In this document: piece after piece, positions 4,016-54,263 of the stretch
Layout of the letters: every line of letters starts with the position of its first letter
Position numbering within the stretch: the first letter of the stretch is position 1
Notes under the pieces: generated by a model
What the model saw: the letters and a program-made list of their open reading frames with translations, nothing else
Database searches by the model: none
What the model was told of the DNA's origin: nothing
From: Shigella phage ESH35
Sequence record: ON528745
DNA length: 64,000 nucleotides
Reading direction: 5' to 3' (one strand)
Position numbers and translations under genes: made by a program

Positions 4016-4044
4016 TTTACTTTGCCACAAGGATGTGGTATAAT
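4015..4044 (+). promoter_or_regulatory. early promoter (second repeated type)
   Basis: GTTTACTTTGCCACAAGGATGTGGTATAAT; near-identical copy at about 49027. Confidence 0.55.
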
Positions 4045-6444: not shown

Positions 6445-6687
6445 ATGACCAAGCGTAAAGAATATATGGAGGCTGCTGAAAAGGCAGTCCGTGAATTAGC
6501 AATAGCTTATTATAATGAACATGGTAAATTTCCTGATAGATACAGCGTGCTTAAATCTGCTTTAACTCGTTCATATAAAAATATGCTATCAGAAGTAAGT
6601 GATATTATATACAAACATAAAGAACAAACGGGCCAAAGTCTTGATTACGACGAGACTTTTAAACAAGTACTAGGAATTAAGGAATAA
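6445..6687 (+). CDS. hypothetical early protein
   Basis: 80-aa ORF tightly packed between neighbours. Confidence 0.45.
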
Positions 6688-17953: not shown

Positions 17954-19638
17954 AGAATTTTAAACTAAACCGAGTTAGGTATCAAAATATAATGTCAGTA
18001 GGTGGAAATCCTATTGACATTCAATTAGATAAGGTTCAAAAAACTCTTATTACTGGACGAAATGGCGGTGGTAAGTCTACTATGTTAGAAGCCATCACAT
18101 TTGGGCTTTTTGGCAAGCCATTTCGTGATGTAAAGAAAGGTCAATTAATAAACAGCACAAATAAGAAAGAACTTTTAGTTGAACTGTGGATGGAATATGA
18201 TGAGAAAAAGTACTATATCAAAAGAGGACAAAAACCAAACGTTTTCGAAATCACCGTTAACGGTACACGTCTTAATGAATCTGCCAGCAGTAAAGATTTC
18301 CAAGCAGAATTTGAACAGCTTATCGGAATGTCATATGCCAGTTTCAAGCAGATTGTTGTCCTTGGTACAGCAGGGTATACCCCTTTCATGGGTTTGTCGA
18401 CCCCTGCACGAAGAAAGCTTGTGGAAGACCTGCTTGAGGTAGGAACATTAGCTGAAATGGATAAGCTTAATAAAGCACTAATACGTGAATTAAATTCACA
18501 AAACCAAGTGCTTGATGTTAAAAAAGATAGTATTATCCAACAAATTAAAATATATAATGATAACGTTGAACGCCAGAAAAAATTAACTGGTGACAACCTT
18601 ACTCGTCTTCAAAATATGTATGATGATTTGGCAAAAGAAGCTAGAACGCTAAAATCAGAAATAGAAGAAGCTAATGAAAGATTAGTTAATATTGTTTTAG
18701 ACGAAGACCCGACTGATGCATTTAATAAAATCGGTCAAGAAGCAGTTTTAATTAAATCAAAAATTGACTCGTATAATAAAGTCATTAATATGTATCATGA
18801 AGGTGGATTATGTCCAACCTGCTTGTCACAATTAAGTTCCGGTGATAAAGTTGTTTCTAAAATTAAAGATAAAGTTTCTGAATGTACGCATTCGTTTGAA
18901 CAGCTTTCAACACATCGTGATAATTTAAAAGTTCTTGTTGATGAATACCGAGATAATATTAAAACCCAGCAGTCGTTGGCAAATGATATTCGCAATAAAA
19001 AGCAATCTCTAATCACGACGGTAGATAAAGCTAAAAAAGTTAAAGCAGCTATAGAAAAAGCATCTTCTGAGTTTATTGACCATGCTGATGAAATAGCATT
19101 GCTTCAAGAAGAACTTGATAAAATTGTTAAGACAAAAACTAATTTAGTAATGGAAAAATACCACCGAGGAATTTTGACTGATATGCTCAAAGATTCTGGT
19201 ATTAAAGGTGCTATTATTAAAAAGTACATTCCATTATTTAATAAGCAGATTAACCATTATCTTAAAATAATGGAAGCGGATTATGTGTTTACATTAGATG
19301 AAGAATTTAATGAGACAATTAAATCCCGTGGTCGTGAAGATTTTAGTTATGCTTCATTCAGTCAAGGTGAAAAAGCGCGAATTGATATTGCTCTTTTATT
19401 TACTTGGCGTGATATTGCTGAAAAAGTTTCAGGTGTTAAAATAAGTTGTTTATTTCTTGATGAAGTGTATGACGGTGCATTTGATGCTGAAGGCATTAAA
19501 AATGTAGCTAAAATTTTAGATGGTTTGAAGGATACCAACTTCTTCATAATTTCGCATAAAGACCATGATCCGCAGGATTATGGACAGCATATTAAAATGG
19601 AAAAAGTTGGTAGATTTAGTGTTGCCACTATTAATTAA
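17950..19638 (+). CDS. 46: recombination ATPase subunit gp46 (Rad50/SbcC-like)
   Basis: 562 aa; Walker A GRNGGGKST, central coiled coil with CPTC zinc hook, C-terminal signature/Walker B. Confidence 0.9.
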   Translation: MKNFKLNRVRYQNIMSVGGNPIDIQLDKVQKTLITGRNGGGKSTMLEAITFGLFGKPFRDVKKGQLINSTNKKELLVELWMEYDEKKYYIKRGQKPNVFEITVNGTRLNESASSKDFQAEFEQLIGMSYASFKQIVVLGTAGYTPFMGLSTPARRKLVEDLLEVGTLAEMDKLNKALIRELNSQNQVLDVKKDSIIQQIKIYNDNVERQKKLTGDNLTRLQNMYDDLAKEARTLKSEIEEANERLVNIVLDEDPTDAFNKIGQEAVLIKSKIDSYNKVINMYHEGGLCPTCLSQLSSGDKVVSKIKDKVSECTHSFEQLSTHRDNLKVLVDEYRDNIKTQQSLANDIRNKKQSLITTVDKAKKVKAAIEKASSEFIDHADEIALLQEELDKIVKTKTNLVMEKYHRGILTDMLKDSGIKGAIIKKYIPLFNKQINHYLKIMEADYVFTLDEEFNETIKSRGREDFSYASFSQGEKARIDIALLFTWRDIAEKVSGVKISCLFLDEVYDGAFDAEGIKNVAKILDGLKDTNFFIISHKDHDPQDYGQHIKMEKVGRFSVATIN

Positions 19639-20348
19639 TGTTTGTGCTTACAGTTATCATTATGCCACCTTGATAAATTTCCGAAAGTGGTAACTTTACC
19701 ACAATGGACGCAAGTACCAGTCTTTTCAGTTTTCTTGCGTCCATTTGGATTTTTCTTGCAGAAATTTCTATGCGCTGCGATAACGCATTTCTTGCCTATC
19801 ATTCCGCAGAATTCGCAGGATGTTTCTTCAAGAATGATTGCTTTAAGCCCGTTTGAGATATTATTTCTGTGTTCTTTAGACATCGGTGGTCTAACTTTAG
19901 GATTAGGGTGATTCGGGCAGTTATCAAAATGCCATCGATTCATATTCCCGCTTAATCCGGACTTACCGCAATGTGGACAAGTTAGTCTTGCTTTATTAGC
20001 TACTGCATCAGACATTTTCTTTCGTGTCTCCTGGGAGAATTCTTTATTCTTTTCTATTTCCCAGAGTTTACGACGAATCCAACCGAAAGTTTTATTGTTA
20101 CGTTTAGCGTATTTCGTGGAAACTGTCATCATGTTAGCAGCATAGACTAATTTTGGTTCAGAAGGATAAATTTTTACTAAAAGTTGATGAGCTACATAGT
20201 GCTCTTCCGGTGTTAAATCTACTAAGTTTGAAGCATCATCGCTGCCATTTAAACAGCGTGGTATAATGTGATGAGATTCAGTATAGCAATCAAGTTTTCG
20301 AGATTTAGCATTAGAGATTAACTTTTCATAAATTAGTTTATAATTCAT
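19635..20348 (-). CDS. freestanding HNH homing endonuclease with three C-terminal zinc-finger repeats
   Basis: 237 aa; HNH motif ESHHIIPRCLNGSDDASNLVDLTPEEHYVAH; three CxxCG..RWH..NC modules; opposite strand to all neighbours; TATAAATA late-promoter match about 34 nt upstream. Confidence 0.8.
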   Translation of the reverse strand: MNYKLIYEKLISNAKSRKLDCYTESHHIIPRCLNGSDDASNLVDLTPEEHYVAHQLLVKIYPSEPKLVYAANMMTVSTKYAKRNNKTFGWIRRKLWEIEKNKEFSQETRKKMSDAVANKARLTCPHCGKSGLSGNMNRWHFDNCPNHPNPKVRPPMSKEHRNNISNGLKAIILEETSCEFCGMIGKKCVIAAHRNFCKKNPNGRKKTEKTGTCVHCGKVTTFGNLSRWHNDNCKHKH

Positions 20349-43642: not shown

Positions 43643-43705
43643 AAAGTTGTTTACTTCCTCGGTTAGTTGTGGTATTATAACACCATAGCTACTGAGGATA
43701 ATAAA

Positions 43706-44218
43706 ATGAAAATTTATCGTGTTGAATCATCGTTTAGCGCATTAAATGATGATAGTGGTATAATGAAAATTAGGCAAGAGTTATGTGTTCAATCAACTCC
43801 TTATCGTGGATTTGATTCTATGAAAACTCGAACTTGGCTAAAATTTTGCGGTATTAATTCATCGTCATTTCATCATCATAGCGATAATTATGAAAGCCAT
43901 GAAAGTATTCCTATTCCACACGATGATAAGTTATTAGTTGAAAATGCTAATGATGCTATTAAAACTAAATGGAATAAAGATTATTCACGAATTGAAAATT
44001 ATATTCCATTGTGGTTTATTGCATTATATCATTTTGCTTTCGCTAGTGAATATGATATAATGAGATGGTTTACTCGAGAAGAGCGTGAAGACTTAAAAGA
44101 TCGTGGAATGTACATTGCGATTTATGAAGTGCCAGATGATCAAGTTATCATTGGTGGGCATCAAGTAATGTTTCGCAAATCGCATGCCGAATTAAAAGGC
44201 TTTATTACCTTAGATTAA
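43706..44218 (+). CDS. hypothetical protein (motB-region)
   Basis: Track ORF 43667 trimmed to ATG after GAGGATAATAAA; 170 aa. Confidence 0.5.
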   Translation: MKIYRVESSFSALNDDSGIMKIRQELCVQSTPYRGFDSMKTRTWLKFCGINSSSFHHHSDNYESHESIPIPHDDKLLVENANDAIKTKWNKDYSRIENYIPLWFIALYHFAFASEYDIMRWFTREEREDLKDRGMYIAIYEVPDDQVIIGGHQVMFRKSHAELKGFITLD

Positions 44219-44227
44219 AGGAAAATT

Positions 44228-44728
44228 ATGATTAAAATTAATACTACGTATCAAATGAAAAAACCATCTGAAATTGATTTCCAGACAATGTCGAATACGA
44301 CTGATAGCAAGTTTTGGGAACTTCTTGGTACAACTGGCGGATATCCTTTTACTGTTATTAGTGTTAATAGCGGAATTCTCATTGGTACAGTGTACATGGA
44401 AATTAGAAACTATTATGGAAGGGTATCATCATTCATCATCTATGAAGAAGATTTCAATTTATTGACAGAAATTGAAAAAGAAGAACAAGAAAAATCCCAT
44501 ATTGATATGGATTTAGTTTCTATGTATGTAACACCAGTTGAAAAAATTGAAGACCCGACTGATTTGTTGTGTAAGGCAGTTTATATTCGTCGTCCATTCG
44601 CGAATCCGATTGGCGGTTGGGTAACTGATCAGTGGATTGAAGATGGTGTTGAACTTCTGAACGTAGTTCATGCTGGAGAGTACTCTGTAGTTCCTCGCAG
44701 CGCAGTGATTAATGTTCGTGTAAGCTAG
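44228..44728 (+). CDS. hypothetical protein (paralog pair A)
   Basis: 166 aa; C-terminal motif VTDQWIEDGVELLNVVHAGEYSVVP. Confidence 0.5.
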   Translation: MIKINTTYQMKKPSEIDFQTMSNTTDSKFWELLGTTGGYPFTVISVNSGILIGTVYMEIRNYYGRVSSFIIYEEDFNLLTEIEKEEQEKSHIDMDLVSMYVTPVEKIEDPTDLLCKAVYIRRPFANPIGGWVTDQWIEDGVELLNVVHAGEYSVVPRSAVINVRVS

Positions 44729-44801
44729 TTTACAAACTCTTGGGATCAGAGTATAATGGTCCTGCGGAGTATAAAATCTTTTTAACAAGTGAGAGATAAT
44801 T

Positions 44802-45293
44802 ATGAATATTAATATCGGTGAAATTGCTCGTGTATCTGATAAATCCCGTTCTAAAGCAGCAGGAAAATTGGTTGAAGTCGTAAGCATTCAGCTTAAACAT
44901 GGTGTTAAAGATGAAGATTCTGAAGTAAAAGTGCGTATCATTCCTAAAGATGGAATGTCTAAACCTCAGTTTGGTTATGTTCGATGGAAATTTCTTGAGC
45001 CTGCGTTTTTGAAAGCTGTTCCCGCTAAAGGAATTGAAACGATTGATACTTCGCATGTAGGTGTAGACTTTAAGTGGAAACTTGGTCAAGCTATCAAGTT
45101 CGTTGCTCCTTATGAGTTTGAATTTACTGAAGGTGAGGAAGGTGTTGTTAACCGTACTCGCGCTATGTGTGCATACATTACTGATCAATGGGTAGAAGAT
45201 GGCGTTAAGTTATACAACGCGGTATTTTTAGGAACATACAAAGTCATTCCTGAAAGTTGGATTAAACACTACAGCAAAGCTCGCTATGCATAA
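44802..45293 (+). CDS. hypothetical protein (paralog pair B; MotB-sized)
   Basis: 163 aa; C-terminal motif ITDQWVEDGVKLYNAVFLGTYKVIP shared with previous ORF. Confidence 0.5.
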   Translation: MNINIGEIARVSDKSRSKAAGKLVEVVSIQLKHGVKDEDSEVKVRIIPKDGMSKPQFGYVRWKFLEPAFLKAVPAKGIETIDTSHVGVDFKWKLGQAIKFVAPYEFEFTEGEEGVVNRTRAMCAYITDQWVEDGVKLYNAVFLGTYKVIPESWIKHYSKARYA

Positions 45294-45310
45294 AGTTTAA
45301 TTTTTTTTTC

Positions 45311-45391
45311 ATAAAACTATATACATCAGTAGTTGATTATGGTACTATATCAATATCAACTACTGATACAGAAAACAACTTGGAGAATAAA
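45311..45391 (+). promoter_or_regulatory. promoter/leader cassette copy C (degenerate -35, 11-bp inverted repeat)
   Basis: CAGTAGTTGAT...TATGGTACTATATCAAT...ATCAACTACTGATACAGA; same downstream leader as copy B. Confidence 0.5.
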
Positions 45392-45661
45392 ATGGAAAAC
45401 TTAATTATCATCGAGCAATCTTTCAACGATTATGGTATGGCTTACGGTTATCGTGCGATAATGGAAGATTCTCGTGGATGTGTTATCGATATTGCTGAAT
45501 GTAAAGATTTACTGCAGCTTTTGAAGATTGTTCGCAAAAATTGGGATTGTGAAAACATTAAAGCTCGTGTTGTTACAGAAGAAGAAACTGTTTTTCATGA
45601 TGTAAAATTCGCTAAAGGTGCTGCTACTCTTCTGAAACGTATCGCTCCACTGTTCAATTAA
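45392..45661 (+). CDS. hypothetical protein
   Basis: Track ORF 45380 (TTG) trimmed to ATG after GGAGAATAAA, same leader as ORF 26860. Confidence 0.5.
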   Translation: MENLIIIEQSFNDYGMAYGYRAIMEDSRGCVIDIAECKDLLQLLKIVRKNWDCENIKARVVTEEETVFHDVKFAKGAATLLKRIAPLFN

Positions 45662-45674
45662 TGAGGAAATTGTA

Positions 45675-45890
45675 ATGAAACGTAAAATTGTTCAGAATTG
45701 CACTAATGACGAATTTGAAGATGTATTATTTGATCCAGATTTGGTAGTGGTTCAAAAGGAACATACCGTTAAGTTTACTCACTTGACTTCGGTTTATGTG
45801 TATGAAAAGGTTGGTGATAAACAACCAATTTACGGTGTATTTCGTGAAATTACTGAAGATGGCACAACTTACTGGAAGGAAATTTATTAA
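45675..45890 (+). CDS. hypothetical protein
   Basis: 71-aa ORF. Confidence 0.45.
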
Positions 45891-46315
45891 TGGCTATTAA
45901 ATTTGAAGTTAATAAATGGTATCAATTTAAAAATAAACAAGCTCAAGAAGATTTTATCAAGGACCATACTGAAAACGGAATTTATGCACGACGTCTTGGT
46001 ATGGAACCTTTTAGAGTTACAGATATTGACTATCTTGGTCGTCCTACTAAAATTATGTCATTTACTGGCACAATTGGATATGCAACACATGGTGATATCC
46101 TTGACGAAAACTTTATCTGGCTCTCTACTAACGAAGCCGAGTTCTTTGATGAAGTGGAAAATCCATATCAGGCAGCTGAAGAGCAAGAGCAGGAAGAGAA
46201 AGAGCAAGAACAAATAGAAGATTTCACAGAATTTCCTGTCATGAAAGTTACTATTGAAAATAATGAACAGGCATGGTCCTTGTATCAAATGCTGAAAGCA
46301 CACTTTAAGGAATAA
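45890..46315 (+). CDS. hypothetical protein with strongly acidic C-terminal tail
   Basis: 141 aa; tail ..[28 protein letters not shown]. Confidence 0.5.
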
Positions 46316-46317
46316 TT

Positions 46318-46494
46318 ATGCCAACGTATGATTATAAATGCCAATCCGAAGATTGCGGGCATGAATATGAAAAAATTAAAAAGATTTCTGAACGAGAAAA
46401 TGATGTTTGCCCTAAATGTCATCGTTTGTCTACTCGTCGGCCTTCTGCTCCTAAGCATGTGAATGGCGGTTTTTACGATTTACTTAAAGGGTGA
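46318..46494 (+). CDS. small zinc-ribbon protein
   Basis: Not in track; about 58 aa; YDYKCQSEDCGH..CPKCH CxxC..CxxC. Confidence 0.35.
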   Translation: MPTYDYKCQSEDCGHEYEKIKKISERENDVCPKCHRLSTRRPSAPKHVNGGFYDLLKG

Positions 46495-46496
46495 TT

Positions 46497-46871
46497 ATGT
46501 TTAAAATCGGTAAGAAATATCGTGTTCGCGAAGGTGAAGAAAAGAAATATCTACTTTCTGCTAGTAATAGGAATGGTTCTATTAATGCCGTAATATCTAC
46601 AAGCGAATTTATCGTTGAAGATATGAAAGGTCATAATGTTACAATGATTAGTACAGCAACTAGCAGAAATGCTGGAAAAATTCTTCACAGTCTGCGGAGT
46701 GAAGTTCTAATTTATGATGAAGAATTTGACTTCTTCGAAGAAGTTCCTGAAGATTTTGATTTTGAATGCACTATCACTATGAAATCTGGTGACCCTCTTT
46801 CTTTTACAGTTAAAGATGAAAGAAGCCGTTTGAGAATTATTAGTCTCCTTCAAGCCATTAAATTTAAGTGA
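46497..46871 (+). CDS. hypothetical protein
   Basis: Track ORF 46491 (GTG) trimmed to ATG. Confidence 0.45.
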   Translation: MFKIGKKYRVREGEEKKYLLSASNRNGSINAVISTSEFIVEDMKGHNVTMISTATSRNAGKILHSLRSEVLIYDEEFDFFEEVPEDFDFECTITMKSGDPLSFTVKDERSRLRIISLLQAIKFK

Positions 46872-47137
46872 AAATTATGAAATATATTAATCGTTCTATC
46901 GCGGCATTAGTATTAGCAGTGTCTTTAGCAGGATGTACTGATGCTGATAATGCAACCAAAGTTTTATCTTCAAGTGGTTTTACTAATATTGAAATCACTG
47001 GATATAATTGGTTTGGTTGTTCTGAAAATGATTTCCAACATACTGGATTTCGTGCTATTGGACCTACTGGGCAGAAAGTAGAAGGAACAGTATGTTCTGG
47101 GCTGTTCTTTAAGGATTCAACTATTCGTTTTAAATAA
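46868..47137 (+). CDS. putative lipoprotein
   Basis: 89 aa; signal plus lipobox ..LAVSLAGC; followed by terminator. Confidence 0.5.
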   Translation: MKIMKYINRSIAALVLAVSLAGCTDADNATKVLSSSGFTNIEITGYNWFGCSENDFQHTGFRAIGPTGQKVEGTVCSGLFFKDSTIRFK

Positions 47138-49026: not shown

Positions 49027-49056
49027 TACTTTACCACAAGGATGTGGTATAATTAA
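49027..49056 (+). promoter_or_regulatory. early promoter upstream of rIIA.1/rIIA
   Basis: GTTTACTTTACCACAAGGATGTGGTATAAT, one mismatch from the 4015 copy. Confidence 0.55.
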
Positions 49057-53608: not shown

Positions 53609-54263
53609 GTTCATTATGGTGGTGTTTCGTTTGGTTAATTAGTATTCCATTAATTTGTTTAACATTTACTTTTGTGATGAGGTTATTATGAAAATTTTGA
53701 ATTCTGTACTTATTGCTTGTGCGTGGTGGGTTGCACAGGTTTCAGCAGTGGTGATTGGTATTCACATTTATTACGAATATTTTTAAAAAGTTGTTTACAA
53801 GACTGTTCTTCCGTGGTACTATTACCCTATCAACTACGGAGGAACAGAAAATGAAAAAGATTGTTAAAGCTATATGGAATGTAGTTATAATACTAATAGT
53901 TTTGAGTATATTCCCAATCGTTTTAATGATTGATGTATTAAACGTTTACTTTGGATTTATGTGAGGAAAATATGAATATTGCAAAATTATTAGGAGTTAT
54001 TTCATTTATTTGTTGGATAGTAGCATGTGTTTTAACTATCTGTATTGATGCTAGCAGTGTGTTTTCACAAGCTTTAGCCCAGGGTATGTGTGCATATTTA
54101 ACATTTGTGTTGTTATCTACTAATGATTAAGAAAATCTTGGGCTATTCACTAGCCCTTGCTACTTTATTGGTAGCACTATATTATGGAGTAATGTTCGGA
54201 TTAATTCAAGTCGTGCTTTTCATTTCTGATGTTATTATGGCACTACATTCACTAGTATGGTAA
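53604..54263 (+). other. cluster of at least five short hydrophobic ORFs (28-52 aa), ndd/ac/stp-equivalent region
   Basis: Read by eye: MSSLWWCFVWLISIPLICL.., MKILNSVLIACAWWVAQV.., MKKIVKAIWNVVIILIVLSIFPIVLMI.. (track 53755..53964 trimmed), MNIAKLLGVISFICWIVACVL.., MIKKILGYSLALATLLVALYYGVMFGL..; individual coordinates approximate. Confidence 0.35.
53787..53850 (+). promoter_or_regulatory. early promoter/leader cassette copy E
   Basis: GTTTACAAGACTGTTCTTCCGTGGTACTATTACCCTATCAACTACGGAGGAACAGAAA. Confidence 0.6.

Follow-up and report, generated by a model that had tools for sequence, protein, structure and literature searches.

The 98-bp gap that separates motB from the next open reading frame of a T4-like phage holds a predicted early promoter whose -10 hexamer sits between the two arms of a perfect inverted repeat. 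Is this repeat the scar of a DNA rearrangement, as the first-pass annotation of the locus had proposed, or is it a working part of the promoter, and if so, on which molecule would it act? We addressed these questions in a window of 64,000 nucleotides, the whole stretch of DNA analysed, from Shigella phage ESH35 (ON528745).

Judging from its sequence, the 64-kb window is that of a T4-like phage, Tequatrovirus, and the region around the element is 95–99% identical to Tequatrovirus genomes, e.g. RB18, AR1 and wV7. The gene order on the + strand is motB-ORF-cef-goF. We identified motB (44802..45293, +), encoding a MotB-like transcriptional regulator, from the list of open reading frames, from its match to phrog_1671 (E = 2e-76) and from the annotation of wV7, RB18 and T4; its stop codon TAA is at 45291-45293 (+). 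The ORF of 89 aa on the other side of the gap (45392..45661, +; phrog_3720) is shared with RB18, AR1 and wV7. Beyond it lie cef (45675-45890, +) and goF (45890-46315, +), both served by the same predicted early promoter.

The element also marks a module boundary. T4-class genomes, which are without the 89-aa ORF, match only up to the element, and CAM-21-class genomes, which have a different upstream motB-like gene, match only from the element onward. In T4 (L006), most of the 89-aa ORF (phrog_3720) has been lost, as seen by comparing window positions 45392-45661 with L002 1400-1480. The loss is an internal deletion between short AAAA repeats, ATGGAAAA / TTCGCTAAAGG, after which about 11 codons of the ORF are left between the promoter and cef. 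The indel that adjoins the element in T4 is a microhomology deletion inside the ORF, not a cassette-to-cassette crossover.

The promoter and the geometry of its inverted repeat

T4 early promoters are of the UP/-35/TGn/-10 type, with extra conserved positions (PMC2988021). The cassette that recurs in the window comprises an A/T-rich tract followed by GTTTAC, a spacer of 18 nt with TGG at its end, the hexamer TACTAT and a start region of conserved sequence, ATCAACTAC(T/G)G. This layout fits the published description (PMC2988021), and by it the repeated "cassette" is a T4-type early promoter. Seven copies that carry the leader motif are present in the window, all on the + strand, at 1074, 26829, 33051, 45355, 53323, 53829 and 55835; the spacer sequence of the paralogs is AAGACTGTTCTTCTG.

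In the copy studied here, the A/T-rich tract TTTAATTTTTTTTTCATAAAACT (45296..45318, +) lies in the position of an UP element (PMC2988021) and is homologous to the tract of the paralogous cassettes. Comparison with cassettes and orthologs places a variant -35, ATATAC (45319..45324, +), 18 nt upstream of TACTAT. The first-pass annotation had described the -35 as missing; GTTTAC itself is indeed replaced, but ATATAC fills its position, matching it at 4 of 6 bases and keeping the distance of 18 nt to TACTAT found in all GTTTAC copies. The extended -10 TGGTACTAT (45340..45348, +), with the hexamer TACTAT at 45343-45348 (+), is identical to the -10 of paralogous early promoters, and the UP-like tract, TGG and TACTAT are likewise identical to those of strong paralogs. 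All the features by which a T4-type early promoter is recognized (UP-like tract, -35 type, TGn, TAnnnT and spacing) are present, the -35 as a variant. The usual 7-nt distance to the -10 gives A45355 as the predicted +1. Downstream of it, the Shine-Dalgarno (SD) sequence GGAG of the 89-aa ORF is at 45382-45385 (+) and its ATG at 45392-45394 (+).

Two other kinds of promoter were considered and rejected. A MotA-dependent middle promoter would carry a TGCTT box at -30 (consensus from PMC2988021), which is absent; on the minus strand, TGATATAGT is present but an antisense promoter finds no acceptable -35 or UP tract there. A search of the literature other than the T4 promoter tables gave nothing usable on T4 start-site maps or on 5' or 3' transcript ends at the site. 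Cassette leaders, e.g. at 45380-45394, end in GGAG followed by an A-rich run (GGAGAATAAAATG), which we take to be the kind of site that the T4 RegB endoribonuclease cuts in early mRNAs. If RegB cut at the leader GGAG, the upstream fragment would carry the hairpin close to its 3' end.

The 11-bp inverted repeat reported by the first-pass annotation is perfect, with CAGTAGTTGAT at 45327-45337 (+) and its reverse complement ATCAACTACTG at 45355-45365. Careful re-reading showed that the arms are perfectly complementary and extend 2 bp further, to 13 bp. The 5' arm ATCAGTAGTTGAT (45325..45337, +) is part of the promoter spacer and precedes the predicted start site, and the 3' arm ATCAACTACTGAT (45355..45367, +) makes up the first 13 nt of the predicted transcript and is the leader motif common to the other copies. 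The upstream arm is therefore, as had been noted, the complement of the leader motif, and the motif of the downstream arm is found at the predicted +1 of the six other co-oriented copies. The loop of 17 nt, TATGGTACTATATCAAT, contains the extended -10, and the centre of the palindrome, 45346, falls within TACTAT. The earlier description of a -10 flanked by the two arms holds, with the correction that five extra bases, TCAAT, separate 'TATGGTACTATA' from the downstream arm. Within the loop, a weak inner stem of 5 bp is possible, TGGTA pairing with TATCA.

No longer perfect inverted repeat with a loop of up to 30 nt is found in the 64-kb window, and first-order Markov random sequences give an expectation of 0.07 perfect repeats of at least 13 bp per window. 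The z-score of the fold energy is -5.1 as RNA (106 nt) and -4.9 as DNA, and the 60-nt core folds as RNA with -20 kcal/mol (z = -6.7). The prediction is thus of a stable hairpin whose loop contains the -10, in agreement with the first-pass annotation, although its further suggestion that the hairpin could sequester the promoter is not meaningful as a description at the RNA level. Perfect short-loop repeats of at least 11 bp number six in the window, against 0.8 expected by chance. Further ones of 11-12 bp are at 89-122, 2290-2343, 19703-19745 and 19229-19275, and an 11-bp perfect inverted repeat inside the motB.2 ORF (44022-44062; CATTATATCAT ... ATGATATAATG) puts the extended -10-like TGATATAAT on both strands.

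Conservation, covariation and origin of the hairpin

In the T4 group, the hairpin is essentially invariant, old and fixed. Of 533 phage records, 369, T4, T2 and T6 among them, have the 66-nt element with 100% identity, while the surrounding 301 nt reach at least 99% identity in 6 records only, so that the element is more conserved than the adjoining coding sequence. Carriers of the identical element include T4 (NC_000866.4, complement 6582-6624), T4 GT7, wV7, CAM-21 and pSe_SNUABM_01; the predicted start at window position 45355 corresponds to position 6594 of NC_000866.4, on the complement strand. In the variants that we fetched, changes fall in the T-run and just past the 3' arm. The arms themselves are changed in two cases only, A to G in SA21RB and A to G in TB004, both transitions that leave G.U pairs. 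A search of IMG/VR for further T4-group arm variants returned five contigs, none of which added to the existing set.

As orthologs we took the promoters upstream of cef in other T4-like genera. In RB69 (Mosigvirus; -35 ATGTAC), the 5' arm GGTCTAT and the 3' arm ATAGACC enclose gatact, and in IME08 (Dhakavirus; -35 GTATAC), TAGGGTA and TACCCTA enclose gtgatattat. With GTTTAC as the -35, Marfa has the arms TGGTAGGAGC and GCTCCTACCA around gtgatactat, KLB31 (Kanagawavirus) has GGTGTAGGA and TCCTACACC around ccatgatactatgt, and a further group (L030, L032, L034, L037) has AGGGCTAT and ATAGCCCT around gatact. The -35 versions of the orthologs are ATGTAC (RB69), GTATAC or GTGTAC (Dhakavirus) and GTTTAC (other genera). 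Among 26 distinct promoter cores, a hairpin with the -10 in or beside its loop is predicted for 23, in most cases with z between -3 and -7.5; the three exceptions form the most distant group and have a small CCACA/TGTGG spacer hairpin instead.

Covariation was examined in the 16 non-T4 cores that fall in one shared register. Cells were paired in 87% of cases, compared to 36-50% when the partner was slid along. Compensatory double changes were found in 6 of 13 pairs, and the covariation score was reached by none of 500 shuffles. RNAalifold recovered the same helix unprompted. The pairs that co-vary join columns 12-20 with columns 31-39, in the spacer and the discriminator, outside the promoter consensus positions. 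The three innermost pairs of the helix fall in TGn/-10 bases, never co-vary and account for the majority of the G.U pairs. Of 20 sequences, 18 fold more stably in the sense strand, due to G.U pairs in the constrained TGn/-10 bases; among the free outer pairs, 6 G.U and 4 A.C mismatches are about equal in number. A hairpin at the orthologous site with different, co-varying arms is the signature of a selected structure and not of an accident.

How, then, did the T4 version come by its perfect arm? Apart from its -35, spacer and discriminator, the cassette of the T4 group is nearly identical to paralogs (the 26814 copy, phiE142, SF and ECML-123-2), and the orthologs in other genera carry a different leader. 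We infer that the T4 lineage acquired a paralog-type leader and that a complementary spacer then restored a hairpin that was already under selection. Templated (strand-switch) copying of the leader is the most likely origin of the perfect 13-bp arm. Ripley's strand-switch model of templated mutation at quasi-palindromes, reportedly first described in T4 rII, resembles the present case in that a perfect arm is exactly complementary to nearby sequence; it differs in that it addresses how such a sequence arises and not its function.

A single record bears on what the arms can do. In Escherichia phage Pinarejo (PP925831.1, 5883-5948; L049 61-126), the 17-nt loop is inverted, ATTGATATAGTACCATA, with the 13-bp arms intact, the only case among about 500 records. 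The flipped loop provides the extended -10 TGATATAGT and keeps the 18-nt spacing from ATATAC. Either the hairpin may have mediated a genuine inversion here or the record may contain a consensus error; an inverted loop is the kind of product expected under the Ripley model from strand switching within a hairpin. Taken as recorded, the inversion shows that the arms can mediate such events.

Two explanations deny the hairpin any selected role. According to one, it is a by-product of promoter constraints, the self-complementarity of TGnTAnnAT and the flanking consensus giving a hairpin without selection for pairing. The behaviour of the three innermost ortholog pairs, confined to TGn/-10 bases, is what this explanation would lead one to expect, but the co-varying pairs are in non-consensus spacer and discriminator, the 13-bp T4 arms lie wholly outside the consensus elements, and mismatched spacer/leader combinations fail to pair, so that we give it hardly any credence. 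According to the other, which the first-pass annotation had put forward, the repeat is an accidental scar, left when two cassette copies in opposite orientation recombined, and has no function of its own. It would account for an upstream arm that is the exact complement of the motif at six other promoters, and Pinarejo, with its loop exactly inverted between intact arms, indicates that the arms can join in DNA rearrangement. Yet the complementarity ends exactly at 13 bp, with flanking bases unlike those of an inverted cassette, and all seven copies in the window are co-oriented, leaving no inverted partner. Moreover, conservation of the element, which is fixed, exceeds that of its coding flanks, and co-varying hairpins occupy the same place in other genera. 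The scar claim was not borne out, the covariation of the orthologs having largely refuted it, and we regard it as very improbable.

Known systems and sister promoters

Promoter-early stem-loop (PeSL) cassettes were defined in RB49 and phi1 by Arbiol et al. 2010 (PMC2839356). They consist of an upstream stop codon in an A/T-rich tract, -35, -10, stem-loop, SD and ATG; the stem-loop has five possible positions, one of them overlapping the -10, and PeSLs are located at indel boundaries (PMC2839356). The one RB49 PeSL stem-loop that was tested lowered the expression of a downstream lacZ to the same extent as rrnB T1 (PMC2839356). Comeau et al. 2014 (PMC4122927) extended PeSLs to T4/PST, with short stem-loops of the form AGNA-loop-TCNT placed 'just upstream' of the promoter.

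At the locus studied here, the stop codon TAA (45291-45293), the A/T tract (45296-45318), GGAG (45382-45385) and the ATG (45392) follow each other as in a PeSL, a 13-bp stem has the -10 in its loop with z of about -5 to -7, and repetition and plasticity are seen in seven co-oriented copies and in relatives that differ on either side of the element. The likeness extends to identical parts in identical order, the promoter being an early one of the sigma-70 type, to the existence of a -10-overlapping subclass, to the recurrence of the cassettes about 100 bp upstream of many small early genes and to their siting at boundaries where related genomes differ. In contrast to the G-run/C-run stems of RB49 and phi1, the stem here is a 13-mer rich in A/T that reproduces the leader of its own cassette, and terminator activity, demonstrated for one RB49 stem-loop only, is a proposal for the present element. 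By the structural definition of PMC2839356 the element can be assigned to this known kind, PeSL, with PMC4122927 putting the stem-loops of T4/PST upstream of the promoter.

As a stable intergenic hairpin just past a stop codon, the element also resembles an intrinsic terminator. It differs in its A/T-rich stem and in the U-tract, which is absent after the stem here and in the orthologs, and because of this absence it is not a canonical intrinsic terminator. A terminator scan of the + strand from 44000 to 47000 found none; the stem is followed by ACAGAAAACAAC, with no U-run, and the candidate was rejected on both grounds. Rfam 15 covariance models, run over 44700-46000 on both strands, gave no match at E of 1 or better. 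In the SA21RB record (OL960580.1; L003 334-381, 1347-1397), this hairpin and that of a neighbouring promoter are annotated by WebGeSTer as 'rho-independent terminator', and both annotations overlap an annotated early promoter.

A third comparison is with the hairpins at T4 late promoters of e, soc, 49 and I-TevI (reviewed in PMC3014915). There as here, the promoter lies inside the 5' strand or the loop of the hairpin, so that transcripts from upstream fold and those started at the embedded promoter remain unfolded. The T4 hairpins, which mask the SD/AUG, work with late (or middle) promoters, whereas the element here belongs to an early promoter and its 3' arm stops short of the SD.

The same design is found at other early promoters. 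Among the 14 early promoters of the window, five combine a leader with a spacer complementary to it (own versus mismatched combinations, permutation p = 0.0009); their -10 elements are near 1062, 43673, 44752, 45343 and 53817, and spacer/leader pairing at these five amounts to -15 to -24 kcal/mol, compared to about -7 with shuffled spacers. Neighbouring promoters of RB69 and IME08 have the same layout. At three sister promoters (arm pairs 1048-1061/1079-1092, 43655-43672/43683-43698 and 53803-53816/53834-53847), the spacer is complementary to a leader stretch that includes the Shine-Dalgarno sequence, over 14-16 bp with -23 to -24 kcal/mol. Masking is predicted for these sister cassettes (1048-1092, 43655-43698 and 53803-53847): from promoter-initiated to read-through RNA, the predicted accessibility of the ribosome site drops from 0.75 to 0.26 at 53814 and from 0.69 to 0.29 at 43670. 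According to these models, sister cassettes with the SD in the 3' arm would be the early-promoter counterpart of the T4 e/soc/49 switch.

Variations on this layout were also seen. The RB69 motB.2 promoter has the same SD-covering design, CTCCTCTGGTT / AACCAGAGGAG. At the motB promoter (GTTTAC...TATAAT), the spacer is complementary to the start region (44736-44748/44757-44770, -14.7 kcal/mol), and the 3' arm holds a GGAG distinct from the ribosome-binding site of motB. Another early-promoter subfamily has a CCACA-agga-TGTGG hairpin in the spacer and TGn (4025-4038 and 49034-49047; also L040-L042), a location that equals the PeSL position 'between -35 and -10'.

Proposed action on read-through RNA

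Since transcription is predicted to start with the first base of the 3' arm, the promoter's own mRNA lacks the 5' arm and cannot form the hairpin. Both arms are held only by RNA reading through from motB, the source of the read-through transcription that enters the element, and the hairpin would therefore act on read-through RNA. We consider it fairly probable that the element is the early promoter of (ORF89)-cef-goF built as a PeSL cassette, with a leader-templated arm and a -10-overlapping stem-loop that insulates against read-through RNA. A PeSL-type insulator is probably the most economical reading of the comparisons made above. In such a mechanism, the hairpin would separate two adjacent early transcription units by acting on the read-through RNA, which would be attenuated or paused, and/or would provide the motB mRNA with a protected 3' end; the embedded promoter would restart transcription past the hairpin. 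Our best guess at what is done to the read-through RNA is attenuation, or 3'-end formation and protection of the motB mRNA. The cassette of about 100 bp, repeated at many early genes, would in addition offer homology for module exchange, the genomes differing on both sides of it.

Two rivals accept selection for the hairpin but give it other tasks. The element could work at the DNA level, as the operator of a dimeric protein over the -10 or as a supercoil-driven cruciform that alters promoter opening. In all lineages the centre of the palindrome falls on the -10 hexamer, the flipped loop of Pinarejo still gives the extended -10 TGATATAGT at the same 18-nt spacing, which suggests a functionally near-symmetric loop, and the outer pairs, with G.U and A.C nearly in balance (6 versus 4), are compatible with DNA as well as with RNA. 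But among related phages the sequence and spacing of the arms vary freely while pairing is kept, which argues against a sequence-specific protein, for which the half-site sequence and not the pairing would be conserved. Arms as short as these (7-13 bp) and a loop of 17 nt, as in the T4 version, make poor cruciform formers. A review of T4 transcription mentions no sequence-specific repressor of T4 early promoters (PMC2988021), and action at the DNA level appears rather unlikely to us. Alternatively, the read-through hairpin, together with an upstream U-run that pairs to GGAGAAUAAAAUG, could hide the ribosome-binding site, so that the ORF would be translated only from transcripts of its own promoter, mirroring T4 e, soc, 49 and I-TevI. 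For such a translational gate there is the precedent reviewed in PMC3014915; the 3' arm of the sister cassettes covers the SD, with a sharp fall in predicted accessibility, and at the locus itself the SD and AUG are paired to the U-run in the minimum-energy fold of the read-through RNA, at all context lengths tried. The predicted change in accessibility is nevertheless small here (0.45 versus 0.38). In 25 orthologous cef promoters, tested with their true start codons and not with the ATG inside AAATGAGAGG, the means were 0.605 versus 0.565, with a lower value in 13 of these promoters (Wilcoxon p = 0.49), and no consistent effect was seen. With its last base at +13, the 3' arm stops 15 nt short of the SD, which is at +28. 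On the accessibility values here and in the orthologs, masking of the ribosome site was rejected for this element, and as an explanation of it we find the gate quite improbable.

Insulation of read-through RNA remains our preferred reading for this promoter, and a broader proposition may be entertained, tentatively, for the family of such hairpins. Hairpins around the -10 whose 5' arm is invariably part of the spacer may be under selection and co-vary at a large share of T-even early promoters, and together they would amount to a general 'read-through versus own-start' RNA switch. Cassettes whose hairpin covers the SD would be translated only while their own promoter fires, the others would mark or protect the end of the upstream message, and the T4 version of the present element would have been rebuilt by strand-switching.

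An apparent oddity of the sequence is thus an ordinary, conserved regulatory part of a very well-studied phage, for which the fitting annotation is an early promoter/stem-loop cassette upstream of ORF89-cef-goF and not a rearrangement scar. What the analysis adds is the compensatory evolution of the hairpin across T4-like genera, stronger evidence of selection than that of the original PeSL papers, and its read-through-only geometry, in which the 5' arm lies upstream of the predicted start. This geometry provides a testable handle on how the packed early genes of these phages may be insulated from one another, and it bears on how "immediate early" and "delayed early" RNAs are told apart. A general switch, if true, would go beyond the published picture of PeSL stem-loops as generic terminators and recombination linkers.
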